DNA of 64,000 nucleotides, taken from the NCBI GenBank assembly GCA_964580075.1, contig CAZOJL010000001.1, positions 11,238 through 75,237 on the forward strand, written 5' to 3'. The position numbers and the translations under genes are program-made. Position 1 is the stretch's first letter, and every line of letters starts with the position of its first letter. This document shows positions 104 to 42,621 of the stretch, piece by piece. The notes beneath the pieces are model-generated. The model did no database searches, was not told the DNA's origin, and saw only the letters and a list, made by a program, of their open reading frames with translations. Source of the DNA: an uncultured Akkermansia sp. (GTDB taxonomy: Bacteria; Verrucomicrobiota; Kiritimatiellia; RFP12; JAAYNR01).

Positions 104-236
104 AAGCGGCGTCGCGCGGAATACCGCTTGCGGCGCGCACTCCAAAATGGCTGGCGCCGCATCCCTCCGCCATCGCCCCGGCGGCAGCGTCTGGAGTGCG
201 CGCGGCAAGCGGTATTCCGCGCGACGCCGCTCTTTT
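104..236. repeat. ~40-bp near-perfect inverted repeat (1 mismatch) with 48-nt spacer, followed by CTCTTTTG on + strand
   Basis: Left arm aaagcggcgtcgcgcggaataccgcttgcggcgcgcactcca (104-143) is the reverse complement of 192-236 except one base; T-run follows on + strand. Confidence 0.6.
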
Positions 237-387
237 GCACGTCCGAAACGCCTCACCCGACCGAGATGAACCACGAAGGGCACGAAAGACTCTTTTTCTG
301 TCTGGCTGTGTCTGGTTATGACTGACCCGTGTTATTCGACCCCGATACCGATACCGACCCCGACAACGCACATACCCACCCACTCAC

Positions 388-2349
388 TCACTCCATCATC
401 CCCAGTCGCAAAACCGGCAGCACCTCCTGCTGAAGGGTGGTGTCGAGATCGAACAGCGCAAATCCCGGGCATCCAGCCTGGCGCAAGGCGTTGATCTGGT
501 CGATCACCTGGATCGGATCGAGACGGCTCTCGGCGGCGGTCACGCCCAGACCGGGGAGGACCCGCCGCGCCTGAGCCTTATTGCGCGTCTGGTCGGTTAC
601 CAGCGCGGCGAAGGCGTCGAGGCTTTCGGTGTAGTTCATCGGCATCACATAGTCGACGAGCCTGTTGCGCAGCCAGGCCTCCCAATCCTGTCCCACCGCC
701 TCCACGCAGGAGGGGTATTTGCCGAAAACAGCGGCTGTCAACCATTTGCCGGGTGCGTGCGCGCGCATGGCCAGCCGGGCATCCCCCACGAACCGCCCGA
801 CCTGTTCCGTCCGCCAGCGCATGAACGCGATCCGCTCCGCGCCGCCCACCGTCACCGCCTGCGGCCACATCGTGAGGCGGTGTCCCAGCGCCTGCTCGAA
901 ACGTGGGCGAACCGACGGTCCGAGACTGCCGCTGAAATCGGGATAACGAACAAAGTCCAGGTGGACGCCATCGGGCGCGTAACGCACCGCCACCTCGCGC
1001 ACCGCCCGCGTCAGATAGTCACGCACGTCGGGCACAGCCGGATCAAGCCACGGCCGATCGCGGCCGTCCGGCTGCGTGAGCAACCAGCCGCGTTGGCTGA
1101 AGATGGCCATCCGCTCAGTTGTCGCCTGCTCGGTGCTGAAGCAAAGCAACCAGGCATGCACCCGGATCCCATAGGGGCGGGCCGCGTCGATGCACGCCCG
1201 GAGTTGGTCTCCCTGCTCTTCAAAAATACGCGAACGCGGCAGCACGTCGCTTGCATAATGGGCAAAACCCGCCCCGCCGACATTCACCAGAAGATCGGAC
1301 ACCCCCGCCGCATCGAGCATCATGCATGTCCGTTTCCAATTGCCGGGATAGAGCCCCATCCCGGAATGATCCCACACGGCGCGGATCTCCCCGCCACGCA
1401 CGGTCTGCAGCAGCCCGTAGACCTCGCGCATCCGCCCCTGCAGCGTCAGGGCGCCGTTCCACGCGTCGGCGCCCTTGCCGACACGCAGCAGCTCACGGGT
1501 TTTCCGCTCCCATCGTGCCGCCGCCTGCGCCGCCGCGACCGCCCGTTTCCGTCTGGCGGGATCGGCGACTTTCCGTGCCGCCACCTCGATCGCCGCAGGC
1601 GAGGCGTAGGCCCCCGCGCGTGACGCCTGTTCCACGAGCCGCACGGCGGCCTTCCCCCACAACTCCGGATCGGCCGAGCCTGCCAATGCCAGCAGTAAAC
1701 GCCCCTTGGCCTCCGCGTCGCCGTCGGCCAGCAACACATGCGTCATCCAATATCCCTGGGGCGACACCAGCCACGCCGGATCGGTCGCCCGGCCCGCACG
1801 ATCAACCCACCACGCCAGCACCGTTGAACGCCCGGTGATCGGTTCCGCCCCCATCAGGTTGGGAGACGTCTGCCGGATCTCCTCAGGCACGCCCATCGGA
1901 CGCGACTCCACAAAGCGCATTGCCGACCAACGGCCGTCCGCACCCGCCCGTTGGTACCCGGTCACGCGCACGCCCATCAGATCGGCGAGGGGCGCCGACG
2001 CCGAATAGCAGACAATCAGCCGTCCGCCCCGGTCGATGAAGGCGCGGCACGCGGCAACCTGCGTGGGTGTCGGCTGCGAAACATAGACGAGCGCCACCAC
2101 CCGCTGCCCTTGCAGCTTCTGGTCCAGAAGCGTGTCGTCCGTCACGTCGGCTTCAAGCCCCACCTCGCGGAACCAGCGCACCACGTGCCGCGCCAGCGCC
2201 GCGGCAAAGCGCCGCTCGCCCTCCGGAACCGACTCGTGCCCATGGACCACCCGCAGGTCCGACGCCGTTGCCCCCTGCGCGCACCCCAGCGCCACGAGGA
2301 CGACTATCACGCGCGCCAGCACCCCTCTGCACGTCCGTCTTGCACGCAT
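388..2349 (-). CDS. Glycoside-hydrolase-like (GHL10/YddW-type) lipoprotein with N-terminal amidotransferase-like region
   Basis: Long ORF. Internal Met followed by lipoprotein-like signal MRARRTCRGVLARVIVVLVALGCAQG. C-terminal half resembles GHL10-family TIM-barrel proteins (WDHSGMGLYPGNW..., VHAWLLCF). Family assignment from memory, not alignment. Confidence 0.5.
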   Translation of the reverse strand: MRARRTCRGVLARVIVVLVALGCAQGATASDLRVVHGHESVPEGERRFAAALARHVVRWFREVGLEADVTDDTLLDQKLQGQRVVALVYVSQPTPTQVAACRAFIDRGGRLIVCYSASAPLADLMGVRVTGYQRAGADGRWSAMRFVESRPMGVPEEIRQTSPNLMGAEPITGRSTVLAWWVDRAGRATDPAWLVSPQGYWMTHVLLADGDAEAKGRLLLALAGSADPELWGKAAVRLVEQASRAGAYASPAAIEVAARKVADPARRKRAVAAAQAAARWERKTRELLRVGKGADAWNGALTLQGRMREVYGLLQTVRGGEIRAVWDHSGMGLYPGNWKRTCMMLDAAGVSDLLVNVGGAGFAHYASDVLPRSRIFEEQGDQLRACIDAARPYGIRVHAWLLCFSTEQATTERMAIFSQRGWLLTQPDGRDRPWLDPAVPDVRDYLTRAVREVAVRYAPDGVHLDFVRYPDFSGSLGPSVRPRFEQALGHRLTMWPQAVTVGGAERIAFMRWRTEQVGRFVGDARLAMRAHAPGKWLTAAVFGKYPSCVEAVGQDWEAWLRNRLVDYVMPMNYTESLDAFAALVTDQTRNKAQARRVLPGLGVTAAESRLDPIQVIDQINALRQAGCPGFALFDLDTTLQQEVLPVLRLGMME

Positions 2350-2357
2350 CGAAAACC

Positions 2358-3731
2358 TCAATTCATCAACGCATGGATGGGCGCCGGGATATGTCCCCCG
2401 CGTCCGACGAAGGTCTCCGCGCCCTGCGGGCACGCGGGCGCAGTCACGACACCCGCACCAAAAAGACCGCCAAAATCAACCCGCTCGCCCATCGCCGCGT
2501 CCGGCACCGGAATCACCCGCACACCCGTGGTCTTGCGGGTTGAAATGCCGATCGCGGCCTCGTCCATGATGATCCCCGCCAGGCAGGCCTCGGTCGTGTC
2601 GCCGGGGAGCAGGATCATGTCCAGCCCGACCGAACAGACCGCCGTCATGGCCTCCAGCTTCTCCAACGTCAGATCCCCCCTCTCGACCGCAGCCGAGAGG
2701 GCGTGGTCTTCCATCACGGGGATAAACGCGCCAGAAAGCCCGCCCACCGCACTGGAGGCGAACGCGCCTCCCTTCTTGACCGCATCATTGAGCAGCATCA
2801 CGGCGGCGGTTGTCCCCGGCGCTCCGACGCGCGCCACCCCCATCGCCTGATAAATCTCTCCGACGCTGTCCCCCACCCGCGGAGTCGGCGCCAGCGAGAG
2901 ATCCACGACGCCGAAGGGAATGCCCAGGCGGTTGGCCACCTCGCGGCCGATCAACTCACCCGTGCGTGTGACGCGGAACGCGGTATGTTTGATCTCCTCG
3001 GCAATCCGGTCGAGCGTCGCGTCGGGATAGCGCGCCACCAGGCGGTCGATCGCCCGTTTCACCACGCCGGGTCCGCTCACGCCGACGTTGATCACGCACT
3101 CGGGCTCGCCGGCGCCGAGCAGCGCGCCCGCCATGAACGGGTTATCCTCGGGCATGTTGGCAAACACCACGATCTTCGCCGCGCCAAACCCGCGTTGCGC
3201 CCGGGTCGCCTGCGCGGTGGCGATGATCTGTCGCGCGACCAGGCGAATCGCATCCACATTCATCCCCGCGCGGGTTGTGCCCACATTGATCGAGGCGCAT
3301 ACCCGCCCGGTCTGCGCGAGGGCCTGCGGCAGCGCCTCCAGCAGCGTCCGCTCGCCCGGCGTCATCCCCTTGTGCACCAGCGCCGAGAACCCGCCGAGCA
3401 GATCAATCCGCACCGCGTCGGCCGCGCGGTCGAGCGCCTGCGCCACCTTCACCGCCGTTTCAACGGTGTGCCCCTCGAGAAGAATCGAGGCGGGCGAGAT
3501 CGCGATCCGCTTGTTGACGATCGGCAGGCCGTATTTTGCCGACACCTCGTCGCAATACGCCACATGATTCCCCGCGAGGGTGATGATCCGCTCGTACACC
3601 GCGCGCGCCAGCGCCTCGGGGTCTCGCCCCGCGCACACGTTGAGGTTGATGCCCAGGGTGACGGTGCGCACATCGAGGTTCTCCTGCTCGACCATGCGGA
3701 GGGTGTCTAGAATGTCTTGGCGTGCGATCAT
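2358..3731 (-). CDS. UPF0210 (DUF711) family protein
   Basis: 457 aa. N-terminus MIARQDILDTLRMVEQENLDVRTVTLGINL matches the conserved UPF0210 N-terminus. Its usual ACT-domain partner gene is adjacent. Confidence 0.6.
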   Translation of the reverse strand: MIARQDILDTLRMVEQENLDVRTVTLGINLNVCAGRDPEALARAVYERIITLAGNHVAYCDEVSAKYGLPIVNKRIAISPASILLEGHTVETAVKVAQALDRAADAVRIDLLGGFSALVHKGMTPGERTLLEALPQALAQTGRVCASINVGTTRAGMNVDAIRLVARQIIATAQATRAQRGFGAAKIVVFANMPEDNPFMAGALLGAGEPECVINVGVSGPGVVKRAIDRLVARYPDATLDRIAEEIKHTAFRVTRTGELIGREVANRLGIPFGVVDLSLAPTPRVGDSVGEIYQAMGVARVGAPGTTAAVMLLNDAVKKGGAFASSAVGGLSGAFIPVMEDHALSAAVERGDLTLEKLEAMTAVCSVGLDMILLPGDTTEACLAGIIMDEAAIGISTRKTTGVRVIPVPDAAMGERVDFGGLFGAGVVTAPACPQGAETFVGRGGHIPAPIHALMN

Positions 3732-3734
3732 GGA

Positions 3735-4301
3735 TCAGTTCCCCGCAAGCAGGTTGTGGATCGCGCCGATCTCGCTCGTGGCGCGAAAGATGTTCTGATG
3801 GCAAATCGAGGCGCGCAACCCGCGCTGGGCCATCGCGGCGCGGAAGTCGGCCTGCACCTGACGGAAGTCGGCCTCGGGCGGCAGGACAACCTCGGCGATG
3901 TAGACCACATCGTCCTGCTCCCCCTCAACCATCCAGTCAATGATGTTGATTCCCCGGTCGACAAAGAACTGGCTGATGCCATAGACCGTTCCCGGGCGAT
4001 CAGGGCCGCGTGTGGTGACAACATAGGGTGATCCGGCGGGGAGGGGTGTGGGCGGCCGCGTGACAAAGGACCGCACCGAGACGGCTGCCGCGGCCTCGAG
4101 CGCACCGGACAGCGACGCCGTGAGCACGCCAGCGTCAGTGGCAGGCGTAAAAGCGGCCGTGAATACGAGATTGAAGAATCCGTGCACGGTGGTCTGGCGA
4201 ATCGCCGCAATGTTGCCACCGTGCGCGTAGACCACCCGCGTCACATCCCGGAGGATGCCCACGCGGTCAGGCGTCAATACAGAAATAACGGCTTGTTCCA
4301 T
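3735..4301 (-). CDS. Tandem ACT-domain regulatory protein (UPF0237/GcvR-like)
   Basis: Two ACT-like units (VISVLTPDRVGILRDVTRVVYAHGGNI; VVTTRGPDRPGTVYGISQFFVDRGINI). Start moved to internal Met 4301 (MEQAVISV). Ends 4 bp upstream of the UPF0210 start. Confidence 0.5.
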   Translation of the reverse strand: MEQAVISVLTPDRVGILRDVTRVVYAHGGNIAAIRQTTVHGFFNLVFTAAFTPATDAGVLTASLSGALEAAAAVSVRSFVTRPPTPLPAGSPYVVTTRGPDRPGTVYGISQFFVDRGINIIDWMVEGEQDDVVYIAEVVLPPEADFRQVQADFRAAMAQRGLRASICHQNIFRATSEIGAIHNLLAGN

Positions 4302-4378
4302 AAGGATCGTGACCCCCTTCGGAAGCGGCTGTCCGAAGCCCCCGGCTCCAGACACTCCACGAGATGCCCCCGCTCGTT

Positions 4379-5458
4379 TTAAAGCAATGTCGGCGTGAGT
4401 TCGGCGTGCGACGGAAGCGTTTCAAGCGAAGCCTGGAGCAGCCGGATGCTGTTCTCCACATCGCTCAGACTCACGGTTTCAACCGCGCTATGCATGTACC
4501 GAAGCGGTACACTGATCAGCGCGACGGCGGCACCGACACCGGCCTGGCGCATCGCCCAGGCATTGGTCGAGCTGCCGCGGCTGCGGACCTGCCGCTGACA
4601 GGCGATGGCCTGCGCGGCAGCGGTCTTCTCAATGTGGCCGCGCAGCACCGGATGGTAGGTCGGGCCGTAGCAAATGATCGGCCCTTTGCCGAGGGCGACA
4701 TCACCGACCAACTTGTTGTCGTTTCCGGGGGTGTCCGACGCGAAGCCGACATCCACGCAGATGCCGGCGTGCGGACGGATCGCATACGCCGCAGTGGTCG
4801 CGCCGACAAGCCCCAACTCCTCCTGCACAGACGCAACCAGGTGGATTTCGACAGGCAGCGGTTTGCCTGCCACGCGACGGAACGCCTCGGTGACGACGAA
4901 CGCGCCCACGCGGTTGTCGAACCCCCGGCACGACACGCGGTCCCCCGCAAGCGGACGCCAGCCGGCGTCGATCACGGCCGGAGCCCCCAACTCGACCAGA
5001 GACTCGGCCTCCGCCCGACTGGCCGCGCCGATGTCAACCGTGATGTCGGTCAGCTCTTTCGGGGCGACCTTGTCCCGTTCATCCTGCTTCATCAGATGCA
5101 TCGGGCGAACGCCGAACACGCCGTTGACCGGGCCGGAACGCCCCTGGATAATGACCCGCTCGCCCGCAAGCAGCGGCACCATCACACCGCCAATGGCGGT
5201 CAGGGTGAGAAACCCCTTTTCGTCGATGTATTGCACCATGAACCCGATCTCGTCACAATGCCCCTCGATCATCACCCGCATCGGAGCGCCGGGGTTGAGG
5301 ATGGCGTGCAGGTTTCCGTGCAGGTCGAGCGCAACCGACGCCGCATGCGGTTTGAGGGCGGCGGCCAACAGACGCAGGCCATCCGACTCCCATCCGGAAG
5401 GCGTCGGTGTCGCCAACAGCCGTTTCAGCAATTCCAGCGCAGGTGCATCCATGGTCAT
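4379..5458 (-). CDS. M42 family metallopeptidase (FrvX/YsdC-like aminopeptidase/endoglucanase-like)
   Basis: 359 aa. MIEGHCDEIGFMV motif and overall M42 organisation. Confidence 0.65.
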   Translation of the reverse strand: MTMDAPALELLKRLLATPTPSGWESDGLRLLAAALKPHAASVALDLHGNLHAILNPGAPMRVMIEGHCDEIGFMVQYIDEKGFLTLTAIGGVMVPLLAGERVIIQGRSGPVNGVFGVRPMHLMKQDERDKVAPKELTDITVDIGAASRAEAESLVELGAPAVIDAGWRPLAGDRVSCRGFDNRVGAFVVTEAFRRVAGKPLPVEIHLVASVQEELGLVGATTAAYAIRPHAGICVDVGFASDTPGNDNKLVGDVALGKGPIICYGPTYHPVLRGHIEKTAAAQAIACQRQVRSRGSSTNAWAMRQAGVGAAVALISVPLRYMHSAVETVSLSDVENSIRLLQASLETLPSHAELTPTLL

Positions 5459-5589: not shown

Positions 5590-5622
5590 CGACAGGAACG
5601 TGACAACGACAGGAACGTGACG
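5590..5622 (+). promoter_or_regulatory. Two tandem 16-17-bp direct repeats (cgacaggaacgtgacA / cgacaggaacgtgacG) abutting the secretin start codon
   Basis: Seen directly: acgcgacaggaacgtgacaacgacaggaacgtgacgATG. The second copy supplies the AGGAAC Shine-Dalgarno-like sequence. Confidence 0.4.
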
Positions 5623-7002
5623 ATGAAACAAGGTCTTCTCAACTCGCTTATCCTGGTGATGATGGCGGTACTGGCGGTCGATGAGGTGTTGGCCCAGCAG
5701 CCCCCCGGTCGCGCGCGCAGGCGGCCCGAAGCACCGGCGAGTGTGAACGGAACGGCTGGCGAAATCAAGGTGACGGCGGAACGCGCGGCGGAACCGGTTC
5801 CGGAAGCGGCTCCGGCACCGGAAGCGGCTCCCGAAGCCGCTCCGGGATCCGGCGGCGCGCTCGAAGATTACGCCCGCATTGCGGCGAGTTTCGCCGCCGA
5901 GGCCAACAGCGACCAGGTCGTCCGTTTTCATCGCTGCCTGCATATCCGCGGCGACACGCTGGCGCAAGCGCTGGAAAACTTCATGACACCGGCGGGAACG
6001 GTCGCGGCCAACGAAGAGTCTGATCTCGTGGTGATTTCGGACGTAGCCGACAATCTCGAGCTGTTGCTCGAGGTCGCCGCCCAACTGGATCAGCCGGTCG
6101 GCCAGGTGCTGATCGAGGCGCGGATCGTTGAATTCAGCGTCGACAGCGATTTCCAGAAAGAGGTCAATCTCGAATTCCAACGACTGAGCAACGTGACCGG
6201 GATTCCCAGTCTGCCGCCGAACTACATGGATTTCGTCGGACGCCTCACCGACGCGTTCATTGATCCGGGAAGCAACCCGCTGGCCACACGCGGCAGCCTC
6301 TCCTACATGCGCTGGGATGCGGGCAAGGAGAGCCTGCTCACCGTTTTCATCCGTTTTCTGGAGAACAACGGCAAAGCCAAAATCCTGTCGGCGCCGAACC
6401 TGATCCTGCGGCGCGGCAGCGAGGGGAGCATCATCACCGGGGAGGAAGTGCCGATCCAGACGCAAACGATCACCTCCGGCTCCGTCAGCACATCGACCAC
6501 CTTCAAAAGCGTCGGCATCAAATTGCGGGTCATCCCGATCACCGTCGACAACGGCCGCATCCGTCTGCAGGTCAATCCCGAAGTATCCAATGTCAACCGC
6601 TACGACGAGAAAACGGGCGCGCCGATCATCGCCGTCCGCAGCGCCAACACCGAGCTGGATGTAGGCGATGGTCAACTCGTATCGATCGGCGGCCTCCTCC
6701 GCAGCGAGGAAATCGAACGGCAGCGGCGGGTGCCGATCCTCTCCCGCATCCCCCTGCTCGGGCAACTCTTCCGGGGCACCACCCGGCGCAGCGTGCAGAC
6801 CCAGTTGGTCATTTTCCTGCGGGCCACCGTGCTGGATCAGGCGCTGGACACGTTGCCGCCGTTGCGCAACCTCGAACTGCCGCCGGAAATCCAAAGCCAG
6901 ATCGATCATGAGGAGGCGCGTCTGAGTCTGCCGCGCCCGAGCCTGCGCGACGACCTCAAGAAACTCGCTGACGGGAACCGGCAGGAGACGCAACCGGAAT
7001 GA
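5623..7002 (+). CDS. Secretin (GspD/PilQ family) with signal peptide, Ala/Pro-rich linker, single secretin_N domain and C-terminal secretin domain
   Basis: Signal peptide MKQGLLNSLILVMMAVLAVDEVLAQ. NolW-like N domain (LVVISDVADNLELLLEVAAQLDQPVGQVLIEARIVEF). Canonical secretin core (ILSAPNLILRRGSEGSIITGEEVPI...VPILSRIPLLGQLFRGT...QLVIFLRATV). The 5407 start of the ORF track gives a non-protein-like extension, so start placed at 5623. Confidence 0.7.
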   Translation: MKQGLLNSLILVMMAVLAVDEVLAQQPPGRARRRPEAPASVNGTAGEIKVTAERAAEPVPEAAPAPEAAPEAAPGSGGALEDYARIAASFAAEANSDQVVRFHRCLHIRGDTLAQALENFMTPAGTVAANEESDLVVISDVADNLELLLEVAAQLDQPVGQVLIEARIVEFSVDSDFQKEVNLEFQRLSNVTGIPSLPPNYMDFVGRLTDAFIDPGSNPLATRGSLSYMRWDAGKESLLTVFIRFLENNGKAKILSAPNLILRRGSEGSIITGEEVPIQTQTITSGSVSTSTTFKSVGIKLRVIPITVDNGRIRLQVNPEVSNVNRYDEKTGAPIIAVRSANTELDVGDGQLVSIGGLLRSEEIERQRRVPILSRIPLLGQLFRGTTRRSVQTQLVIFLRATVLDQALDTLPPLRNLELPPEIQSQIDHEEARLSLPRPSLRDDLKKLADGNRQETQPE

Positions 7003-8519
7003 AGCAAGAGGCGTCCAGAATGCGCGTGGGACGCGTGCTGCTGGTTGCCGTAGCCCTGGCGGCCGCCGGGGTCGGCGGTGTCACCGCGTGGCGCCGCGCA
7101 GGCGCCACGCAACGTGACGGGAAAGACAGCGAGACGCGGGATCGCTATGCAACGGTGCAGCGGGGAGACTTTAACATCGCCCTGGAGATCGATGGCAATC
7201 TGGACGCGATCAAGCACCACATGATCCGTCCCGAGAACCGCACGGGGCGCTACGGGCTGGAAATCGTCGAGTTGGTTGCCGACCGCAGCGCCGTGAAGGC
7301 CGGCGATGTGCTGTTCCGGTTTTCCGAAGAGAAACACGTCATTGAACAAGACCGGTTGCAGTTGGCGCTCGCCGACGAGCAGACCAGCCTCAACCTGGCC
7401 GAGCAGGACCTCGATATGACCCGCGCCGGCAACCTGAGCTCCATCCGGGCCGCCTATGACCAACTGCGGTCCGCCGCGGATGCGCTCTCCCGCTATGAAG
7501 AGGAGGACGCCCGGCGCACGCGCAGCGAACTTCAGACCGCCATTCAGTCGGCGCGGGCCAAGCTCAGCCAAACGCGCACTGAACTCTCCGCCGCGCGCGC
7601 CCAGTTGTCGGATGCCCAGATGCAGGATCCCGACCGCGTGGCGGAACTGGAAAAGCTGGTGCGGGACAAAATCCAGGCCGTCAAAACCGTCGGTGACGAG
7701 TTGGACAAGGCGAGCGGAAATCTCCGTATCTTCAAGCAATACGACCATCCGCAGAAGATGAGGACTTTGCAAGAGAGCCTCACCAAGGCGGAAATGGCCC
7801 TGCAGCGCGACCTGGTCAACGCGGCCGGCAATCTGGTCAAGGATCAGCGGGTGATCCAGAATCACCGGGAGCGTATCCGCCAAGTGGAGGAGGAATTGAC
7901 CCAGATGGCCACCATCCGCAAGGCGCTCGTCCTGCGGGCGCCGACCGATGGCATCGTCACCATGGGCGACCCGAATCGGCGGGCGTGGGGTCAGCCGGAA
8001 GAGATCAAGGTCGGCAGCACGTTTGGCGAGGGTCAGGTGATCGCCTCGATTCCCGATTTGTCACGTTTCCTGGTGCGGGTCGATCTACCCGAGGAGTTCC
8101 GTTCCCGCATCACCACGGGGCTGCGCGCCATCTTGAGGAGCAAGGCGGTACCCGACCTGGTGATGGAGGGGAGCATCTCGCAGATTGCCGCCATGGCCCA
8201 GAATGTGGTGCATTGGGATCGTTCAAGTCCCAAGATCTATCCCGTCGAAGTCGCCACAGAGACCATGGACCCCCGGCTGATGCCGGGAATGACGATGCGG
8301 GTCGAAATCATCGTTGAAACCGTGACAAACGTCCTGCATCTGCCGATCGAAGCGATCTTCCAGCGCGAAGGGAAGACGTTTGCGCGGGTCAAGGGGGTGA
8401 CGGGAGTCGAAGAGCGGCCCGTGACCACGGGCCGGACTTCCAACAGTTTCGTGGAAATACTCTCCGGTTTGGAGGCGGGCGAGCGCGTCACCCTCTATCA
8501 ACCCGGCGTGGCAAAGTGA
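6999..8519 (+). CDS. HlyD-family periplasmic adaptor (MacA/T1SS-MFP-like) with long coiled coil
   Basis: N-terminal TM helix, ~200-aa coiled coil, and C-terminal beta-barrel/MPD regions typical of HlyD adaptors. ATG overlaps the secretin stop (ATGA at 6999-7002). Confidence 0.7.
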   Translation: MKQEASRMRVGRVLLVAVALAAAGVGGVTAWRRAGATQRDGKDSETRDRYATVQRGDFNIALEIDGNLDAIKHHMIRPENRTGRYGLEIVELVADRSAVKAGDVLFRFSEEKHVIEQDRLQLALADEQTSLNLAEQDLDMTRAGNLSSIRAAYDQLRSAADALSRYEEEDARRTRSELQTAIQSARAKLSQTRTELSAARAQLSDAQMQDPDRVAELEKLVRDKIQAVKTVGDELDKASGNLRIFKQYDHPQKMRTLQESLTKAEMALQRDLVNAAGNLVKDQRVIQNHRERIRQVEEELTQMATIRKALVLRAPTDGIVTMGDPNRRAWGQPEEIKVGSTFGEGQVIASIPDLSRFLVRVDLPEEFRSRITTGLRAILRSKAVPDLVMEGSISQIAAMAQNVVHWDRSSPKIYPVEVATETMDPRLMPGMTMRVEIIVETVTNVLHLPIEAIFQREGKTFARVKGVTGVEERPVTTGRTSNSFVEILSGLEAGERVTLYQPGVAK

Positions 8520-8525
8520 CCGGCT

Positions 8526-9233
8526 ATGGCGCTGCTGACTTTTAACGGTGTGACCAAGACCTACTACGAAGGCGCGACGCCGGTGCATGCGGTGCGCGAG
8601 GTGAGTTTCACCATTCCGACCGGCCAGTTCATAGCGGTCATGGGCGCCTCGGGATCGGGCAAATCGACCATCCTCAATATCGTCGGTATGCTCGACCGCC
8701 CTACCGCCGGCACGTACATACTCGAAACAACCGACGTCTCGTCGTTGAGCGACAATGCGATGTCCGATATTCGCTGCCGGCGGATCGGCATCGTCTTCCA
8801 ATCGTTCAACCTGTTCACCCAGTTCAGCGTGTTCGAAAACGTGTGCACCCCGATGCGCTATGCCCGCATCCCGCCATCTGTCATGCGGGCCAGGGCCCAC
8901 GAACTGATCGAGTTGCTCGGGCTGGGGCACCGCTTGAGGCACCGGCCGTCGCAATTGTCGGGCGGCGAACGCCAACGGGTGGCTATCGCGCGCGCGCTGG
9001 CCAACGACCCGCCGTTGGTGCTGGCCGATGAGCCGACCGGCAATCTGGACGAGAAAACGGGCGATGACGTCATGCGCATTCTCACCGGGCTGGTTGATCA
9101 CGGCCGCACCGTTGTCATGGTCACCCACAACCCCGCCTACGAGCAAATCGTCGACCGGGTGATCCGCCTGCACGACGGCACCATTGTCGAAGACCGGCCG
9201 GGCGGACGCCGGGCAGCCAGGACGGGGAGGTAA
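8526..9233 (+). CDS. ABC transporter ATP-binding protein (MacB/LolD-type)
   Basis: Walker A GASGSGKST, signature LSGGERQRVAIARAL, Walker B LVLADEPTGNLD. Confidence 0.8.
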   Translation: MALLTFNGVTKTYYEGATPVHAVREVSFTIPTGQFIAVMGASGSGKSTILNIVGMLDRPTAGTYILETTDVSSLSDNAMSDIRCRRIGIVFQSFNLFTQFSVFENVCTPMRYARIPPSVMRARAHELIELLGLGHRLRHRPSQLSGGERQRVAIARALANDPPLVLADEPTGNLDEKTGDDVMRILTGLVDHGRTVVMVTHNPAYEQIVDRVIRLHDGTIVEDRPGGRRAARTGR

Positions 9234-9237
9234 GGCC

Positions 9238-10506
9238 ATGCTTACTATTCTGCGCATGCTGCACATGACCTTCCTCAATCTCTCCTGCCACGCCTTCCGC
9301 GCGTTTCTGGCCGCGCTCGGCGTGGTGCTCGGCGTGAGCGCCGTGGTCGCGATGATGGCGATCAGCGAGGGGGGCCGTCGCGAATCCATCGATCGGATCC
9401 GGGCCATGGGCATCGACAACATCGTCATCCGCTCGGTCAAGCCGACCCAGGAGAATGAACCGCAAACCACCAGCCGTTCCACCACCATAACCGACTACGG
9501 GCTGAAGGCCAAGGACGTCGCGCACATGCTGGCCACCTTCGAGAATATCCGGCAGATCGTCCCGATTCGCGACATGCAACAGCGTATTTTCGTCGGCGGC
9601 CTGCGGTCAAACGTGCGCATGATGGCCACCTCGCCAGAATTTCTTGCCATGACCTTCAGTGAATTGGACGACAGTCGCGGGCGCTGGATCGCCGATTTCG
9701 ACGAATCCCGCCGCAACCCCGTCTGCGTGGTCGGCGTTGACGCGGCTCGCACGCTGTTCGGAATCGGCGATCCGTTGAATCAGACGGTCAGCGCCGGCGG
9801 TGGCACGTTCCAGGTGGTCGGGGTGTTGCGCAATTCGCGCGGGGCCAAACTGGCCGGACAATACGATCTCAATAATCTGGTCTTCATTCCCTTCGCCACG
9901 GGTAACGCCGTCTACGGAAGCATGATCCCGGTGGAAGGCTCACGCCGTGAACGGGTGAGCGTGGACTATGACTTCCTCTACATCAAGGTGATCGCGGTGG
10001 AATCGATCACCGACACTGTCAAACGGTTGCGGGCCTACCTGGACAAGACGCGCGAGACGCGCGATTTCGAGGTTCAGGTGCCTTACGAACTGATGTTGCA
10101 GGAAGAGGCGACACAGCGTATCTTCCGCATCGTGATGGGATCGATCGCCGCCATCTCGTTACTGGTCGGCGGGATCGGCATCATGAACATCATGCTGGCC
10201 AACATCTTCGAGCGGACGCGTGAGATCGGAACCCGGCGCGCGCTGGGCGCCAAGAAGCGCGACATCCTCCTGCAGTTCCTGCTCGAATCGACCATTCTAA
10301 CCGCGCTGGGCGGCGGCATCGGCCTCAGCCTGGGGATTGCGATCGCGCGCCTGGTCGAGCATTTTGCCCAGATGCGTACTGCGGTCACCCTGCCCAGCGT
10401 CATCATTTCACTCGCCGTCTCGATCATCACCGGCATGGTCTTCGGCACCTACCCCGCCTCCAAAGCCGCCAATCTCGACCCGATCGAAGCGCTGCGGCAC
10501 GAATAG
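9238..10506 (+). CDS. ABC transporter permease, FtsX/MacB-type (4 TM with large periplasmic domain)
   Basis: FtsX-like C-terminal TM bundle (IVMGSIAAISLLVGGIGIMNIMLANIFERTREIGTRRALGAKKRDIL). Start at MLTILRML, 4 bp after the ATPase stop. Confidence 0.75.
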   Translation: MLTILRMLHMTFLNLSCHAFRAFLAALGVVLGVSAVVAMMAISEGGRRESIDRIRAMGIDNIVIRSVKPTQENEPQTTSRSTTITDYGLKAKDVAHMLATFENIRQIVPIRDMQQRIFVGGLRSNVRMMATSPEFLAMTFSELDDSRGRWIADFDESRRNPVCVVGVDAARTLFGIGDPLNQTVSAGGGTFQVVGVLRNSRGAKLAGQYDLNNLVFIPFATGNAVYGSMIPVEGSRRERVSVDYDFLYIKVIAVESITDTVKRLRAYLDKTRETRDFEVQVPYELMLQEEATQRIFRIVMGSIAAISLLVGGIGIMNIMLANIFERTREIGTRRALGAKKRDILLQFLLESTILTALGGGIGLSLGIAIARLVEHFAQMRTAVTLPSVIISLAVSIITGMVFGTYPASKAANLDPIEALRHE

Positions 10507-10516
10507 GCCGGTGCGC

Positions 10517-13500
10517 CTACTCCAGCATCCAGGTTCCCCAGGCGTTGGGGTGGATCCGGATTTCGGAAGGGATGTCGTTGTTGATCGAGACCTCGGGACT
10601 TTTGTCGCTCCACAGGTAGCGAATCGCGTTGCGCGTGCCGCCTTCGTTGCCATAGATCACGCCGATGTCCCCCAGGAGCGATAGCCCGCTCGCAGGCGTC
10701 ACGCCGAGTTCCGCCCACGGAATCGCGGCTTCGACGACATAGCCGTCCTTCTCCACGGTGACGTGCACGGGCAGGTCGTTCCACGACGCGACGTCATCGA
10801 GTGTGTCTTTGCCCGAACTCGGGGTTTCAACACTGAAGGCGTTGGGCTTCTCCGAATCCGCCGTCACGTAGCGATAGCGCGTCGCCATCAGCTTGCCGGC
10901 GGCCGTCCGGGCGATGAGGATGCGGGTGTCGCCGACCTCCATCCGCTGCCGATTCTGCGCGTGCGTGGCACGCGCGCCCAGATGGGTGGCAATGCCGATT
11001 TCAACCGCATCGCCGGACTTGAACAGGAGCCGCGGGTCCGTGGGGGTGTTGATGAACGGGGATTCGTCGCTCACCTGAAAGCGGACGTACAGATTCGCCG
11101 CGTCATACCCGATCTGCGCGTACGCCGTGCGGGCGCCTTCCAACGCGATGGCCAGCGGTTGCGTCGCGCCCCATTCATCAAACGTGCCGTCGGCGGCCGC
11201 ATTCGCGAGACGCGGCAATTTCGCCGTTTTCTTGCCCGCAGCCGATTGCTGCGCCAGTAAGTTGTGCCTGGCCGACGCCCCGGCCTGTGTGGCCTGCTCG
11301 GGAGAAACCGTGAGTTTCACGGTCTTCCGCTTGATCGTATCCAGGCCGCCGAGTTCCCAAACCCGCTGGTCGCAGTCGCCTCCCAGGTAGTAGTACTTGC
11401 CGCTCTTGGGATGACGGAAGAGCGTGCCATTGAAGTTTTCGGTCAGCACCATGCCCGCGTTCATCGTATAGATCGAACGCTGGTCCTGGCCGAGCGCGTC
11501 CACAAACAGACCCTCCTGCGCATCGAGGAGAAAATACTGGCCGTAATAGCCGTTGAACGCCACCAGCTCGCGCAACCCGCCCGGCGTGCCGCACAAACCA
11601 ACCAGATATCCCGGCGTGTAGACGTCGCTTGTCCAGGCGAAGGCGCAGTGGGCGTTGTGGTACGCCCAGAGTTTCTCACCCGTGGCCGAAAACTTGACCA
11701 CCCGGTGCCCCGACCCCTGATGCCGCTGTCCGCGCGCAAGCGAACCGCCCGAGACCACCGCGTAATACCCCCCGTCTTCAGACGGGGCCACCCCCGAAAC
11801 GGCGCCGCCTTCGGGATCGGTCGCCAGAACGGTCAGGGTGGTCGGATCGGCGTAGGTCAATCCGCCCTGCTCGTTGAAACCGAGAAAATCCCATCGCGTA
11901 ATCGAATACGGCTGCGTGGTCTTCGCACCACCCTGGTTAGCCCATCCCACACCCCGATGGGCGTAGAAGTTGAGGTTCGTGTCCATCGGCAAGCCAAAGT
12001 AGTACCCGGGCAATGCGGCATAGTGGATCTCCCAAGCCTGCACCGCGCCATCGTTGTTTCCATCGAGCCACCACTTGCGGCCTTCAATGGACAGGCGGGG
12101 GACAAACCGGTCGTCGACCTGTTCGTAGAGCGTCGAAGGCCCGAATCCCGGCGTCGAATTCTGCGTCCAGAAGAACACGCGTCCCTGGACACGCGCAAAG
12201 ACGCCCCCCGCATGGTTGGGCTGGCCGCCAAATTTGATGCCGCCGTCTTCACGCGCACGCAACACCGTCGCATCCACCTTCCATGTCCCCGTGTCGTAGT
12301 CCACGAGGTAACGCACGGATTGCATGTAGACGTGCTCGGGGCGGTCGGGGTCCACAATCGCGCGGGTCGAGTAGTCAACCGAGCCGAAGAACTCCCGCCA
12401 CAGCGTGCCATCCGGGTTCCAGACCGAATAGCGCTTGGGATAGGGGTCGGCCTCAGCCACCCACAGGCGGTCGTTCCGGTCCACGGCGATCCCGTAGGGA
12501 TTGAGCATCCCATCCGGGTCGAAGGCGCCCAGCGCAGGCCGTCCGCCGGGCGTGCCGTATTTCAAAAGCACCTTTCCATCCGGCGCGAGCTTCCATACCT
12601 GCATCGTCTGGCCCTGCAGACCAACATAGAGATTGCCGGCCGCGTCGCAAGCCAGGTGGCGCGGCTCGTCGAGGTCGCCCAGAAGAGGCGTGAACGCCTC
12701 CGCCTTGAGATCGTATCGGCCGACGGTATTGCTGCTCACGGCGTAGAGCGTGCCGTCGGGCGCAACCGCCAGGCCAAAGGGTCTGGCCAACGGCACGTCG
12801 CCACACGGTTCGCCCGAGGCGAGATCGAGCAGGTGCAGCCGGTTGTCGGTGAGACTGCTGACAATGAGACGATCCCCCAGCACAGTCAACCCGTAGAGCT
12901 GCCAAGAGCGGGAGCCCCAATTCTCGCCCGATTCGTCCGCCCGTTGGGTGGTGACCGTGGCGTCCGGACGTCCGCCCGAAAAGGGCGTCAACAGGCCGTT
13001 TTCGAGGTTACACTTCGTAATTTTGGCGCCGCCCCGGCTGAGGAAGTAGGCGAACCCCTTGTGCACCGCCACAGCCTTGCCATTCGCCATGGTGCCATAG
13101 CGCTTGCGCCCGTCGAGATCGGTGCGGATGGACGCCATCATTGCCTCAGCGCTGGCCGTGCCGAGAATGACGGCATCATCGGCAATGGCCATCGTCTGAG
13201 GCATGTTATAGTCGCCCGCCCAGCCCCCAGAGCCGTCCTCGGTTTGATAGGGCGGCGTGCCGCTCACGCCGATATCGCAGACATAGTTCTGAACCACGCC
13301 CTCGTGCGTGAGCATTTTGACCTCATAGGCGCCGGCTGCGACGGCGTGACCGTAATCATCCAGGCCATCCCACAGGTAGACCTGATCGCCGGCCGGATAC
13401 GGTTGCGCGCCCAGGCAGGTGCGAATGATCTGGCCTTCGGCCGTGCACACCGCCAGGCTCACCTTGCCTGCCTTCTCGAGCGTGAACGCAATGGGTATGT

Positions 13501-14326
13501 GGCCTTCGGCGCGCCCCAGGACATTCCGCTCCGGCAGCTTAAGCTGTCCGGTCTTCTCAAAAACGGCCGTACCCCATGAAACCGGACCCATGTAGCCGAG
13601 ATCGCCGCCCGCCGGGTTGCGCACATCGGTGAAGCCGCATCGGACCGCCATCCCCTGGGCGTTTCCCCAGTGCATTTGCCACATGATCTGAATGCGGTCG
13701 CCGGCGGTCAGCGGCCGCGGCGCGCGAAGCACCGACCACGGAACGCGGTACTCCAGCGTGTACCCCTGACCATCGGCGTCCTTCGCGTAAGCCCCCACCA
13801 CACCGGGCGGATTCAGCGTCGGATTCTGAAAGCCCAACGTGTAAAAAGAGAAGTAGCCAGCCGCCTGGTCCTGCGTCGAATACCACATCCAGAACATGTT
13901 GACGAATTTCTGATCCTCGGCAGACATCTTCGCCCCCCCCTGGGTCGTAACCGTTGAGTGGATATCCGGATTGGAGAGGAGAAAGATCTGAATCGCGTCG
14001 GCGTTCCAGGCCATGTTGACCTCGCCGCCGAACGTGTAATTATTGACCATCGGGGTGGGGTCTTGGACATGGGCGCTGATGTACAGGAAGTCGGCGTCAT
14101 ACATCATCGCGCCGTGCACCGTATAGGCCTTCGGGTTCGACTCGTCCAGACACATCAGGTTTGCGCCCGACAGGTCCCAGTCGTCACGCGCGCCGTCAAT
14201 GACGACCGCACCCGGTGTCGGCACCACGTGGATCTCCGTATGATCCGCCTTGTTCACGATCGCCACATAGGCACACGCCGCCCGCGCCGTAAACAGAACC
14301 CCCAGATAGATTGCCAATCGTTTCAC
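10517..14326 (-). CDS. Large secreted protein (1269 aa) with N- and C-terminal CBM9-like sugar-binding modules flanking NHL/beta-propeller repeats
   Basis: Signal peptide MKRLAIYLGVLFTARAACA. DG..DDW / DGTFDEWG motifs at both ends. NHL-like repeats (PFGLAVAPDGTLYAV...). Function unknown. Confidence 0.5.
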   Translation of the reverse strand: MKRLAIYLGVLFTARAACAYVAIVNKADHTEIHVVPTPGAVVIDGARDDWDLSGANLMCLDESNPKAYTVHGAMMYDADFLYISAHVQDPTPMVNNYTFGGEVNMAWNADAIQIFLLSNPDIHSTVTTQGGAKMSAEDQKFVNMFWMWYSTQDQAAGYFSFYTLGFQNPTLNPPGVVGAYAKDADGQGYTLEYRVPWSVLRAPRPLTAGDRIQIMWQMHWGNAQGMAVRCGFTDVRNPAGGDLGYMGPVSWGTAVFEKTGQLKLPERNVLGRAEGHIPIAFTLEKAGKVSLAVCTAEGQIIRTCLGAQPYPAGDQVYLWDGLDDYGHAVAAGAYEVKMLTHEGVVQNYVCDIGVSGTPPYQTEDGSGGWAGDYNMPQTMAIADDAVILGTASAEAMMASIRTDLDGRKRYGTMANGKAVAVHKGFAYFLSRGGAKITKCNLENGLLTPFSGGRPDATVTTQRADESGENWGSRSWQLYGLTVLGDRLIVSSLTDNRLHLLDLASGEPCGDVPLARPFGLAVAPDGTLYAVSSNTVGRYDLKAEAFTPLLGDLDEPRHLACDAAGNLYVGLQGQTMQVWKLAPDGKVLLKYGTPGGRPALGAFDPDGMLNPYGIAVDRNDRLWVAEADPYPKRYSVWNPDGTLWREFFGSVDYSTRAIVDPDRPEHVYMQSVRYLVDYDTGTWKVDATVLRAREDGGIKFGGQPNHAGGVFARVQGRVFFWTQNSTPGFGPSTLYEQVDDRFVPRLSIEGRKWWLDGNNDGAVQAWEIHYAALPGYYFGLPMDTNLNFYAHRGVGWANQGGAKTTQPYSITRWDFLGFNEQGGLTYADPTTLTVLATDPEGGAVSGVAPSEDGGYYAVVSGGSLARGQRHQGSGHRVVKFSATGEKLWAYHNAHCAFAWTSDVYTPGYLVGLCGTPGGLRELVAFNGYYGQYFLLDAQEGLFVDALGQDQRSIYTMNAGMVLTENFNGTLFRHPKSGKYYYLGGDCDQRVWELGGLDTIKRKTVKLTVSPEQATQAGASARHNLLAQQSAAGKKTAKLPRLANAAADGTFDEWGATQPLAIALEGARTAYAQIGYDAANLYVRFQVSDESPFINTPTDPRLLFKSGDAVEIGIATHLGARATHAQNRQRMEVGDTRILIARTAAGKLMATRYRYVTADSEKPNAFSVETPSSGKDTLDDVASWNDLPVHVTVEKDGYVVEAAIPWAELGVTPASGLSLLGDIGVIYGNEGGTRNAIRYLWSDKSPEVSINNDIPSEIRIHPNAWGTWMLE

Positions 14327-15135: not shown

Positions 15136-15262
15136 CACGGACAGACACGGACGGACACGGACAGTCAAGGACATCGCGCGCTATTCCGCTGCCCGTGTGT
15201 GTCCGTGTCTGTCCGTGTCTGTCCGTGTCTGTCATTGTCTGTCCGTGTGTCCGTGTGTGTCC
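15136..15262. repeat. Long hairpin repeat, copy B (direct copy of 14418-14530; 3 x GTCCGTGTCT)
   Basis: ~85-bp core identical to copy A with one C/T difference. Overlaps the 3' end of the RND gene. Confidence 0.7.
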
Positions 15263-18200
15263 AGGACCTTGTCCTCCCGGGACCGGCGCGTGGTGAGGGT
15301 GTAGATCAGCGGCAGGATGGTCAGGGTCAGCACACCGGCGACGAGAATGCCACCGACCGAGGCGATGCCAATGCCCACCCGGTTTTCCGAGCCGATACCC
15401 GTGCTGACGGCGATCGGCAGCATGCCCAGACCCGAAGCGAGCACCACCATGAGTACCGGACGGAATTGGTCCGTAATCGCATCCAGCATGGCTTCGCGTC
15501 GGCACATGCCACCCTGAAGATTCTGGGCGGTTTTATCCACAATCAAGATGGCCGCGTTTACGACGACGCCGATCAGCATCAACATGCCGAGCAACACGAG
15601 GATGGTGATCGAAGAGCCGGTGAAGACCAGCGCCCAAATGACGCCGACCAGCGCCATGGGCAGCGTGAGCAGCACGAGGACGGGGCGGCTCCACGATTCG
15701 AGGATCGCGGCCAGTGTCAGCAACGTCAGAAACGCCGCCAGCAAAATGGCCTCGCCGAAATCAGCGATGGTCTCCCCCATCATCTCGCTCACACCCGACG
15801 TGTCGAGCGTGCAACCGGGTGGCACCAGATTCTGCTCGTCCACAAGCCGCGCAATCTCGCCGCCCACACCGCTCATGGTGGCGCCCGGCGCAATATCGCC
15901 GAGAATCTTGACGGTGCGCCGCTTGTCCACACGGTAAATCTGAATCGTGGAGCGGGTGTCCTCCACGTCCGCGACGCTCTCGAGCACGATCGGCCGTCCC
16001 GTACGGCCGGGAAGCAGGAATTGCCGGATCTGGTCCTTGCCTTCCCGCCCGGCAAGTTTCACGCGGATGTCGTACGTGCGGTCGCCGCGCTTGTAGTTGG
16101 CCGCTACGATACCGTCCACATTGGCCCTGACGATCATCCCAAGCCGTGTGGCCGGGAGGCCGAGATCGGCGAGCACCGGACGCTTGGGGGTGATTCGGAT
16201 TTCGGGCTTTGAATCGCGCACCGTCGTGTCGATCTGCGCGACATCGGTCAGACGGCGGCTCGCATCGCGAATGGCCGTGGCGGTGGCTTCCAGCGTCTGC
16301 AGCTCGTCACCCGTAAGGTTGTAGTCAATCTGGAAGCTCTGCCCGCCCATCTTTCCCAGAACCGAGGCGGAGACCCTGCAATCGGTCTCATCGGCGAGCA
16401 ACGCGCGAATCTCGGACAGGCGGTCCTGAAGGGTCCAGGCGCGTTCCGTCTTCGGCGCGAAGAACATCTCGACCTGGCCCATGTAGACCCCTTCATTGGC
16501 CAGTCCGCTCATCGATTCGGCCCGGCCCGCCGTGGTCAGGACATGCCGGACGTCGGAAAGACCGCGCAGCCGTTCCTGGACCCCCGCGAGCCGGTTGACG
16601 GTCTTGTCCAGATCGTAGTACGCGGGCATCTCGACGCGGATGAACACGCGCCCGTTGTCATCCGTGGCAAAGAAATTGAATCCGAGGCGCGATCCGCCCG
16701 ATTTCAGCGTGAAGATCACGAGAAGCACAAAACCGACCCCAATCGGCACGTTGGTGTACTTGTGCCAGGCCAGCCACCGCAGGACGGCCGTGAAACCCGT
16801 CGCTGTCCGATGAAAGCCCCTGTCCCATATCCGGCCCAGCCGAGCAAACAGGGAGTTCTTCCGTGTGCCGGATGGCTCCAGCAGCATCGCGCAGAGCATG
16901 GGCGTGAGCGTGAAGCTGATCAGAATCGAGGTTGCGTTAACGATGAGAGTGGTGATCGCGAACGCGCTGAGCATGCGTCCCACCAGGCTGGTCATCATCG
17001 CGATCGGAAACATCACGACCACATTCGTGCCGGCCGAGGCGAGCACGGCGACCGTCACCTCCGACGCGCCGATGCGCGCCGCTTCCCACGGGTCATTCCT
17101 GACCGCGAACGTGGACACGATGTTCTCCAGCACCACGATGGAGTTGGCGACCAACACCCCGGTGGAGAGCCCGATCGCGAGCAGCGTCACCGTGTTGAGC
17201 GACTGTCCGGCAAGGTGCATGAAGAACAGGCTGATGCAGATGGTCACAGGCATCGTGATCACGACAATGAGGGTTGTACGAATGTTGATGAGGAACACGA
17301 AGAGAATCGCGGCGCACAGGAGAATGGCTCCCAGCACACTCGATACCGCCGAGTCGACCGAGGCCTGCACACTCGCGGCCTCGTCCGAAACCCACGTCAG
17401 CACCATCCCCCCCGGCAATTCCCGGCGAATTTGCTCGAAGCGTTTGCGCACCTCGCTGGCCACCGCCACCGTGTTGCCTTCGGCCTTCTTGATGATCTTG
17501 AGCACCACACCCGGCTGGCCGTCGAGCACGGCGCGCTGGCGCACCTCCTCGGTCGCGAGTCGAACCGTGCCGAGATCGTCCAGCCGAAGGCGGGAGCCGT
17601 CGTGGTTTGCAACCTCGAGATCGGCAATGTCAGCGATCTCACGGTATTCGGCGTCGAAACGGACGGTGTATTCGTCGCCCGCTTCGCGGACACGCCCCCC
17701 CGGCAGACTGAGGATGTTTCCTTGGAGTGAGGCCACCACGTCGAAGCTGGTCAGCCCGGCGGCGGCGAGGGTGTCACGATTCAGTTCCACCCACACCTCA
17801 CGCGCGTTGCCGCCGATCACCTGCACATCGGCCACGCCGGGAACGGTCGCAAAACGGTCGGCGATCGTGTTGTCGGCATAATCGTACAGGTCGTCAAGCG
17901 GCACCTCTCCCGCGAGGAAGACGTTGGCCACAGGCGACGCGTTGATGTTGATCTTCTGCACGACCGGACGATCCGCGTTCTCGGGCAGTTTGGCCAACAC
18001 CACGTCGAGTTTTTCGCGCACGTCCTGTGCCGCAATGTCGACATCCACCGACAGGTTGAACTCCAGCACGACCTGGCTCACATTCTCCAGGCTGGAGGAT
18101 TCGATATGCTTCAGCCCGTCGATCCCCGAAACGGCGTCTTCGATGTGCTTGCTGACGTCTTTTTCGACATCCTCCGGTGACGCGCCCATCCAGGTGGTGA

Positions 18201-18342: not shown

Positions 18343-18415
18343 GGCGGATCCTTTTATTCCGGCAACGGCCGTTTCTTCAAAGCGGAAGCGCCCCCGAAAG
18401 GCGTGGCGCGCACCA

Positions 18416-19711: not shown

Positions 19712-19739
19712 AAGCCTCTCGCGTGTGCGTAGGGTGGGA

Positions 19740-21086: not shown

Positions 21087-21154
21087 GACGGACGGACGCA
21101 TCGGCACCCCGTGATGGCGTAGGGTGGCGGGCGTCGTATCATGTGCGGATACGC

Positions 21155-23049: not shown

Positions 23050-23139
23050 GGAGAGGTGACCGAGTGGTCGAAGGTGCAGCACTGGAAATGCTGTGTGCTC
23101 TTACGGGCACCGGGGGTTCGAATCCCTCCCTCTCCGCCA
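23050..23139 (+). tRNA. tRNA-Ser (anticodon GGA), long variable arm, CCA encoded
   Basis: GGAGAGGTGACCGAGTGGTCGAAGGTGCAGCACTGGAAATGCTGTGTGCTCTTACGGGCACCGGGGGTTCGAATCCCTCCCTCTCCGCCA. Cloverleaf with anticodon loop cuGGAaa, GTTCGAATCC T-loop, long extra arm. Confidence 0.85.
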
Positions 23140-23160
23140 AATGCCTTGTCTCCCCCTTTT

Positions 23161-24648: not shown

Positions 24649-24722
24649 GGATGCGCGCATCGCGCTGTCAGTGCGCATCGTTTCCAGAGCCGTCTCTCGC
24701 TCAACAATAAAGGTAACATTGT

Positions 24723-31222: not shown

Positions 31223-31227
31223 AAACA

Positions 31228-33441: not shown

Positions 33442-33444
33442 AGA

Positions 33445-33550: not shown

Positions 33551-33559
33551 TACGATCAG

Positions 33560-42592: not shown

Positions 42593-42621
42593 TCTTGTAC
42601 GTTACAGAGATTAGTTTGCGA

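Follow-up and report, generated by a model that had tools for sequence, protein, structure and literature searches.

A short secretin gene linked to a MacAB-like ABC pump operon: a candidate exporter with a secretin in the place of TolC

To our knowledge, described tripartite ABC, resistance-nodulation-division (RND) and major facilitator superfamily (MFS) pumps and type I secretion systems use TolC-family trimers as their outlet, and described secretins serve the type II (T2SS) and type III (T3SS) secretion systems, the type IV pilus (T4P), Tad and competence machines or filamentous phage. In the 64-kb stretch of DNA analysed here (the window; contig CAZOJL010000001.1, uncultured Akkermansia sp.), four tightly packed genes at 5623-10506 of the plus strand encode a secretin, a MacA-like adaptor, a MacB/LolD-type ATPase and a permease with MacB_PCD and FtsX domains. 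Does this pump discharge through the secretin? If a secretin replaces TolC, both rules, on pump exits and on secretin partners, would be broken. The first-pass annotation of the window had proposed the secretin as the outer-membrane pore of the pump. Comparative genomics and fold prediction support this, as far as such methods go, and we consider it rather likely that the products of the four genes form a single ATP-driven exporter spanning the envelope, with the secretin as its outer-membrane exit duct. In our reading, the secretin would have taken over from TolC as the outlet of a type VII ABC tripartite pump.

The linkage of secretin and pump was followed in both directions. In the forward scan, one genome was used per GTDB species, which gave 44 loci, 42 of them with at least 1.5 kb downstream of the secretin. 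The adaptor gene was directly downstream of the secretin in 39 of the 42 species-level loci, spread over five phyla (Lentisphaerota, Kiritimatiellota, Verrucomicrobiota, Planctomycetota and Sumerlaeota), and nearly all of the 39 also had the ATPase and the permease in the same order. An in-frame start at -20 to +30 nt from the secretin stop was present in 40/42 loci. Single loci of Coraliomargarita akajimensis, a Planctomycetota metagenome-assembled genome (MAG), a 110-kb ENA contig and a planctomycete-like contig are consistent with the linkage. Cultured carriers are C. akajimensis DSM 45221 (secretin WP_013044673.1, UniProt D5ERB3), Lentimonas strains and Pontiellaceae B1224. The reverse scan of metagenomes, seeded with the adaptor, gave 61 loci, which were annotated with hidden Markov models (HMMs), yielding 37 family adaptors (at least 346 bits) and 24 others (at most 173 bits). 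A secretin was found directly upstream in all 27 family-adaptor loci with readable upstream DNA and at none of the 24 non-family loci, six of which had a TolC-family gene (OEP, PF02321) upstream. The earlier annotation had named relatives without the secretin, or with it in unrelated contexts, as what would speak against its proposal; in both directions the linkage held, the exceptions being three Planctomycetota with a solo secretin.

The pairing of secretin, adaptor and ABC genes is not due to chance. Since two-way linkage over five phyla with overlapping or near-abutting frames is hard to explain otherwise, it points to a shared function. Clustering of all flanking open reading frames (ORFs) recovered only the four operon genes and shadow ORFs antisense to them, with no fifth conserved gene; other gene families recurred in at most 9/48 loci. 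A conserved cargo or accessory gene beside the operon was ruled out as a candidate by this clustering, in which no cargo gene was linked to the operon, no T2SS genes were conserved beside the secretin homologues, and no pilotin or other secretin accessory gene was conserved next to the operon. The flanking genes vary by locus and several are housekeeping genes (LptE, FabH, ProRS, EPSP synthase).

The closest operons outside the family have a TolC-type gene where the secretin stands. The nearest non-family adaptor, P0209, shares 25% identity with the window adaptor, is colinear over its full length and is encoded in an operon (L052) of the order OEP, adaptor, ABC, MacB permease. A second operon (L096) has the same gene order. 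In these two closest outgroups a TolC-family gene occupies the slot of the secretin, and in a further outgroup operon (L053) the OEP gene lies downstream of the permease. When the proteins of the adaptor-seeded scan were scored against the window proteins, the adaptors of secretin-linked loci reached at least 346 bits against at most 173 for non-family loci, the ATPases 221-448 against at most 234, and the permeases 339-804 against at most 265. Since all three components of the secretin-linked loci outscore those of the non-family loci, a single origin fits. These sequence comparisons are most simply read as one replacement, in place, within an ancestral pump operon: the secretin gene would have taken the 5' position of the OEP gene in the order OEP, adaptor, ABC, permease, and the secretin-bearing module would afterwards have been kept in the PVC (Planctomycetes-Verrucomicrobia-Chlamydiae) group and the Sumerlaeota. 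A word-indexed search had suggested that the adaptor family is set off by a clear drop in score, from 208 to 127 bits; this was discarded when an exhaustive profile search gave a continuum of long adaptors. Because of this continuum, the outer limit of the secretin linkage is known from the sampled adaptor loci only.

The genes of the window operon are listed in Table 1. All four lie on the plus strand at the coordinates of the first-pass annotation, their HMM assignments agree with it, and the first two genes overlap as it had stated. The adaptor start lies on the secretin stop in an ATGA at 6999-7002 (-4 nt), the adaptor and the ATPase genes are separated by 6 nt (8519 to 8526), and the ATPase and the permease genes by 4 nt (9233 to 9238) with a GGGGAGG ribosome-binding site ahead, all read from the sequence. 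No terminator-like sites above chance level were found inside the four-gene operon. A public contig with the identical protein and independent gene calls has the same lengths of 459, 506, 235 and 422 aa. The neighbours are unrelated to the operon, with a divergent M42 peptidase gene upstream and a convergent gene for a CBM9 protein downstream.

Table 1. Positions of the operon genes and their parts in the window
Feature	Position	Strand	Basis
Short secretin gene, 459 aa	5623-7002	+	Pfam Secretin, Secretin_N
Secretin signal peptide, about aa 1-25, MKQGLLNSLILVMMAVLAVDEVLAQ	5623-5697	+	predicted Sec, read from translation
Secretin single N (N3-like) domain, aa 98-155	5914-6087	+	AF2, Secretin_N
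Secretin C-domain, aa 246-404, including motif VPILSRIPLLGQLF	6358-6834	+	Pfam PF00263
MacA-like periplasmic adaptor, 506 aa, N-terminal membrane anchor	6999-8519	+	Pfam, NCBIfam, AF2, Foldseek
Adaptor alpha-helical hairpin, aa 111-308	7329-7922	+	AF2 helices
ABC ATPase, 235 aa, MacB/LolD/FtsE type	8526-9233	+	ABC_tran, motifs read from translation
MacB-type (type VII ABC) permease, 422 aa	9238-10506	+	MacB_PCD, FtsX

A perfect 15-nt direct repeat, CGACAGGAACGTGAC, with a period of 17 occupies 5590-5621, leaving 1 base to the ATG of the secretin gene. Besides the window, only an identical metagenome contig (L054) has it; it is missing in relatives whose proteins are 70-79% identical. A recent duplication or an operator peculiar to the strain might explain it.

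Is the first gene a real secretin? The Pfam Secretin model matched the product with 2.9e-42 and 144.6 bits, against a cut-off of 27.5, and Secretin_N matched aa 108-161 with 2.6e-7 and 31.2 bits, against a gathering cut-off of 28.2. When a profile of the family was compared with solved structures, GspD was the best match (3e-41), followed by PilQ, RcpA and the phage protein pIV (7ofh). The AlphaFold2 (AF2) monomer model, with a mean predicted local distance difference test score (pLDDT) of 64.5, shows a signal-peptide helix (2-19), a disordered linker rich in Pro, Ala and Glu (aa 20-76), a helix (77-95), the N domain, the beta-core and two C-terminal helices (aa 421-450). The N domain folds as beta-alpha-beta-beta-alpha (E98-104/H110-120/E126-129/E135-141/H142-155). 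Foldseek searches with this model gave significant matches to secretins only, GspD and PilQ being the best, and a probability of 1.0 for 40 secretin chains. The residues P371, P377, G380 and F383 are invariant in the family alignment A1, and the motif VPILSRIPLLGQLF may correspond to the amphipathic helical loop of secretins. The predicted signal peptide contains no lipobox cysteine in the translation, and the window secretin is not a lipoprotein.

The NCBIfam secretin models for GspD, PilQ, MshL, HofQ and SctC all scored this protein far below their cut-offs. The T2SS GspD model TIGR02517 reached 179.7 bits against a cut-off of 351.35 (also given as 351) and aligned in the N3-plus-core region only; the T4P PilQ model TIGR02515 reached 150.1 bits against 284.35. 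The window secretin has one N domain and lacks the N0-N1-N2-N3 architecture of GspD, in agreement with the single N domain first described for it. Homologues come from the Lentisphaerota, Kiritimatiellota, Verrucomicrobiota (Opitutales), Planctomycetota and Sumerlaeota, and every one of them is a short protein of about 400-510 aa. The window protein is a genuine secretin by sequence and fold, and it stands outside any named functional class since it falls far below the cut-off of every curated NCBIfam secretin model. These equivalog models are also the only evidence that would favour an adjacency by chance or a mis-annotation, in which the first gene would not be a real secretin. Set against the Pfam score, the match to the GspD structures, the Foldseek result and the synteny counts in both directions, this explanation has next to no credibility, and we regard it as refuted.

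Of 70 family secretins, 68 have a cysteine at the position of residue 105 in the window protein (nt 5935-5937, in FHRCLHIRG, within strand 1 of the N domain), and in half of them it is the sole cysteine; the window adaptor has no cysteine. An inter-protomer disulphide, a ligand or a covalent tether are possibilities for its role.

The three inner components are related to those of MacAB. In the adaptor, the Pfam domains HlyD_D23 and HlyD_3 were above cut-off, TIGR01730 (RND_mfp) reached 78 bits and stayed under its 94.9-bit cut-off, and the family profile matched MacA structures with 2e-20. The AF2 model (pLDDT 85.7) has an N-terminal membrane helix, a long hairpin and then beta-rich domains, and its best Foldseek matches were the MacA chains 9qgy_G and 5nik_D of MacAB-TolC. 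The hairpin consists of the helices 111-209 and 211-308 of about 98 residues each (pLDDT 84-97, lowest at the tip around aa 201-220), from which a length of about 147 Å is predicted at 1.5 Å per residue. The ATPase matched ABC_tran with 4e-33, was closest in NCBIfam to the MacB nucleotide-binding domain (NBD) and LolD, and has an intact Walker A, signature, Walker B and H-loop in the translation. The permease, with a first transmembrane segment, a periplasmic core domain and an FtsX C-terminal transmembrane bundle, matched MacB_PCD (1e-29) and FtsX (1.9e-23) in Pfam and residues 257-648 of MacB in NCBIfam (1.6e-42). Since the score stayed under the 966 bits required by the equivalog model of E. 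coli MacB, the window pump is a family relative, not an orthologue, of E. coli MacB. Other named pumps scored lower than their cut-offs as well: lolCE 27.5 bits (362) and DevC 20.8 bits (290.35) on the permease, LolD 214 bits (307.75) and DevA 172.1 bits (295.8) on the ATPase.

Three features of the adaptor were considered as signs of its outer-membrane partner; two were rejected, and the third, the RLS tip motif, does not decide the matter. The hairpin tips were scored with R-x3-L-x6-S, which is our presumed spacing of the RLS motif. The RLS motif itself, at the hairpin tip for docking to TolC, is named in a review (PMC8277102). With this spacing, the tips of 31/31 family adaptors lacked the motif, and the adaptor of an RND operon of the window had it at aa 233. 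It was missing too in the OEP-linked adaptors P0209 and P0213, and its absence is therefore not diagnostic of TolC independence. The long hairpin as a compensation for a missing TolC tunnel was ruled out, since the OEP-linked P0209 is colinear with a hairpin only 8 residues shorter. A conserved mid-hairpin patch of the family adaptors (ALSRYEEED at 162-170 and LRIFKQYDHPQKMRTL at 242-257) was ruled out as a secretin-docking site because P0209 has the same motifs.

How the exporter would work can be sketched with the MacAB-TolC mechanism as a model (PMC8277102, PMC12646458). In the inner membrane, a MacB-type permease dimer would be powered by the separate ABC ATPase, which would drive conformational changes of the dimer in a mechanotransmission as in MacAB-TolC. 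The substrate would come not from the cytoplasm but from the periplasm or the inner membrane's outer leaflet, and the periplasmic domains of the dimer would push it into the tube of the membrane-anchored adaptor, presumably a hexamer. The adaptor hairpin of about 147 Å would cross the periplasm, and the tube would meet the secretin at its N-domain ring and vestibule on the periplasmic side. The outer-membrane exit would be a multimer of the short, one-N-domain secretin, wide and gated, replacing the TolC-family trimer. We infer docking, stoichiometry, transport direction and cargo by analogy with known systems. A single-locus pattern with varied, often housekeeping flanks suggests a general cargo made elsewhere in the genome, for example secreted or surface proteins, lipoproteins or a glycolipid. 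Only tentatively would we go further and see here a distinct 'secretin-ABC' secretion system, in which a pump of the MacB type, working by mechanotransmission, would feed a secretin pore through a long adaptor tube.

The same complex might form without being a conduit. The ABC-adaptor part would then be a mechanical accessory that assembles, anchors or opens the secretin gate, and periplasmic cargo would leave, or macromolecules would enter, through the secretin alone, comparable to the mechanotransmission in FtsEX-EnvC and LolCDE. Type VII ABC systems do include the non-transport mechanotransducers FtsEX-EnvC and YbbAP-TesA (PMC12646458), genes for a pilotin or another secretin accessory are not conserved beside the operon, and the strict two-way linkage fits this explanation equally well. 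However, the adaptor has a MacA-like architecture by profile and fold, with a membrane anchor, a long hairpin and beta-rich domains, the nearest relatives are OEP-linked pumps of the same gene order, and the secretin lacks a lipoprotein signal and hence is not a Lol-type client. We consider an accessory role unlikely.

The window also contains an OEP(TolC)-adaptor-AcrB RND operon at 15232-21158 on the minus strand, with the OEP gene at 19740-21158, confirming the earlier observation of a TolC gene in a separate RND operon. Since this operon is present, the genome has an ordinary TolC-type duct beside the secretin-linked pump. The pump could use such a TolC-family protein in trans, and the secretin could merely be co-transcribed and serve a T2SS- or T4P-like pathway elsewhere. 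The unlinked tolC of E. coli macAB, the OEP gene of the window and the solo secretins of three Planctomycetota genomes fit this arrangement. It is harder to reconcile with the two-way linkage (39/42, 27/27 and 0/24) over five phyla in overlapping or near-abutting frames, and with the closest outgroup operons, which encode their own OEP in the slot of the secretin. In addition, the secretin has none of the domains N0-N2, through which other secretins make contact with the inner-membrane platforms of T2SS and T4P. As the first-pass annotation had noted for the surroundings, a scan of ORFs across the 64-kb window, the part of the genome that was searched, turned up no T2SS or T4P components (including GspC/E/F/G and pseudopilins). 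Nor did the scanned ORFs contain a prepilin motif or pseudopilin-like proteins. We consider the use of TolC in trans less probable still than an accessory role of the pump.

Several points weigh against the secretin as the exit duct. With at least one OEP gene in the genome, TolC could be used, and since E. coli macAB works with an unlinked tolC, the missing OEP gene in the operon is no proof against it. The proposed contact between secretin and adaptor is deduced from gene linkage and sequence. No adaptor feature specific to secretin docking survived the comparison with the OEP-linked P0209. No secretin-adaptor fusion of the Rosetta-stone type was present among nine long adaptor hits of 740-1047 aa, most of which had two HlyD-type matches and are duplicated or extended adaptors. 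The symmetry of a presumably hexameric adaptor would not match that of a 12- to 15-meric secretin, a kind of mismatch that is frequent among secretin systems. Further, the secretin occurs solo in the three Planctomycetota genomes, and in Candidatus Sumerlaeota (L035/L004) no ABC ATPase or MacB permease was found in about 4 kb downstream.

The exceptional loci themselves were inspected. Two of the solo secretin genes, L017 6962-8335 and L047 6863-8131, are divergent and adjoin dnaA-dnaN-gyrB, and no adaptor or ABC genes were found within 7 kb of them. The third (L025) lies amid glycosidase genes. The Sumerlaeota locus (171-4561) consists of the secretin, the adaptor and then a 424-aa protein without a significant Pfam match. 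Downstream of the solo secretin of L047, at 9453-11876 on the minus strand, is a gene for a CBM9 protein; another, the convergent gene just downstream of the window module (10517-14326, minus strand), encodes a 1269-aa protein with CBM9 and FlgD_ig domains. The CBM9 proteins near secretins may be a coincidence or a hint to the cargo.

Compared with known systems, the closest match is MacAB-TolC of E. coli (PDB 5NIK/9QGY), which shares the MacB_PCD and FtsX permease, the MacB/LolD-type NBD and the membrane-anchored adaptor of MacA fold. In contrast to MacAB-TolC, the outer-membrane gene of the operon here is a secretin and not a TolC-family OEP, NBD and permease are encoded by separate genes, and the adaptor has 506 aa, against 371 aa in MacA, with a hairpin of about 198 aa, and lacks the RLS tip. 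The uncharacterised L052 (P0209) and L096 operons share gene order, the three inner components, a similar hairpin length and the mid-hairpin motif, but their first gene encodes a TolC-family OEP. T2SS GspD/PulD, the best match of the secretin in sequence and fold, has the same secretin core, N3-like ring domain and C-terminal S-domain-like helices, whereas N0, N1 and N2 are absent here, the protein has 459 aa against 524-657 aa of the matched GspD chains, and it is coupled to an ABC pump.

Filamentous phages export through the short secretin pIV with the inner-membrane ATPase pI/pXI, which is not a T2SS component. Their machine, like the one proposed here, is a minimal secretin-based exporter, and the pIV structure 7ofh was among the matches; however, the phage ATPase is not an ABC protein, there is no membrane fusion protein (MFP) adaptor, the cargo is the phage filament, and the family described here is chromosomal. 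LolCDE differs in that the window operon has an MFP adaptor and its permease does not reach the LolC/LolE equivalog score. Adaptor-bearing MacB-family pumps that export non-drug envelope cargo are DevBCA-HgdD (glycolipid) and AatPABCD (dispersin lipoprotein) (PMC12646458; PMC7943197), which illustrate the sort of cargo that pumps of this family can transport. Both use TolC-like outer-membrane proteins, unlike the pump proposed here, which is far under the cut-offs of the DevA and DevC models.

No description of a secretin with a MacAB, HlyD or FtsX pump was found in the full-text literature searched, the coverage of which is incomplete. The parts are all of known kinds; their combination is new and apparently undescribed, as the first-pass annotation had suspected. 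We ourselves know of no secretin coupled to such a pump. If the proposed exporter exists, outer-membrane exit ducts would be exchangeable between non-homologous families, and the four genes would be the smallest secretin-based cellular exporter known. On the more tentative reading, as a distinct secretin-ABC system, they would give PVC-group bacteria a route for large or folded envelope cargo to the surface or the outside, with exoenzymes, surface lipoproteins or glycolipids as candidates, independent of TolC and of the T2SS pseudopilus piston. As far as we know, outer-membrane traffic in the polysaccharide-degrading PVC phyla is poorly understood, and the exporter would offer a handle on it in Verrucomicrobiota, Kiritimatiellota, Lentisphaerota and Planctomycetota. 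The public annotations of the family genes as 'GspD', 'RND adaptor' and 'MacA' would then need correcting.

A few other observations were made. Among the family loci, one that is 74-89% identical in protein to the Lentisphaerota-like window module is labelled 'Akkermansia sp.', and an Opitutales-type locus is labelled 'Yoonia sp.', an alphaproteobacterium. These MAG labels (L012 and L031) look wrong, and mis-binning is likely. Elsewhere in the window, the GC content drops from about 0.62 to 0.47 at 24-25 kb (23050-25000), just after a tRNA gene at 23050-23136, which could be the edge of an island. A run of genes resembling a Bat/aerotolerance cluster extends over 29063-39222 (DUF58, BatA and VWA, DUF4350 and two DUF4175 proteins). 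Two adjacent giant genes at 42595-52889 encode proteins of 1611 and 1822 aa with PQQ/BamB-like beta-propeller repeats, and a PQQ_2 protein is encoded at 60805-62463 on the minus strand.

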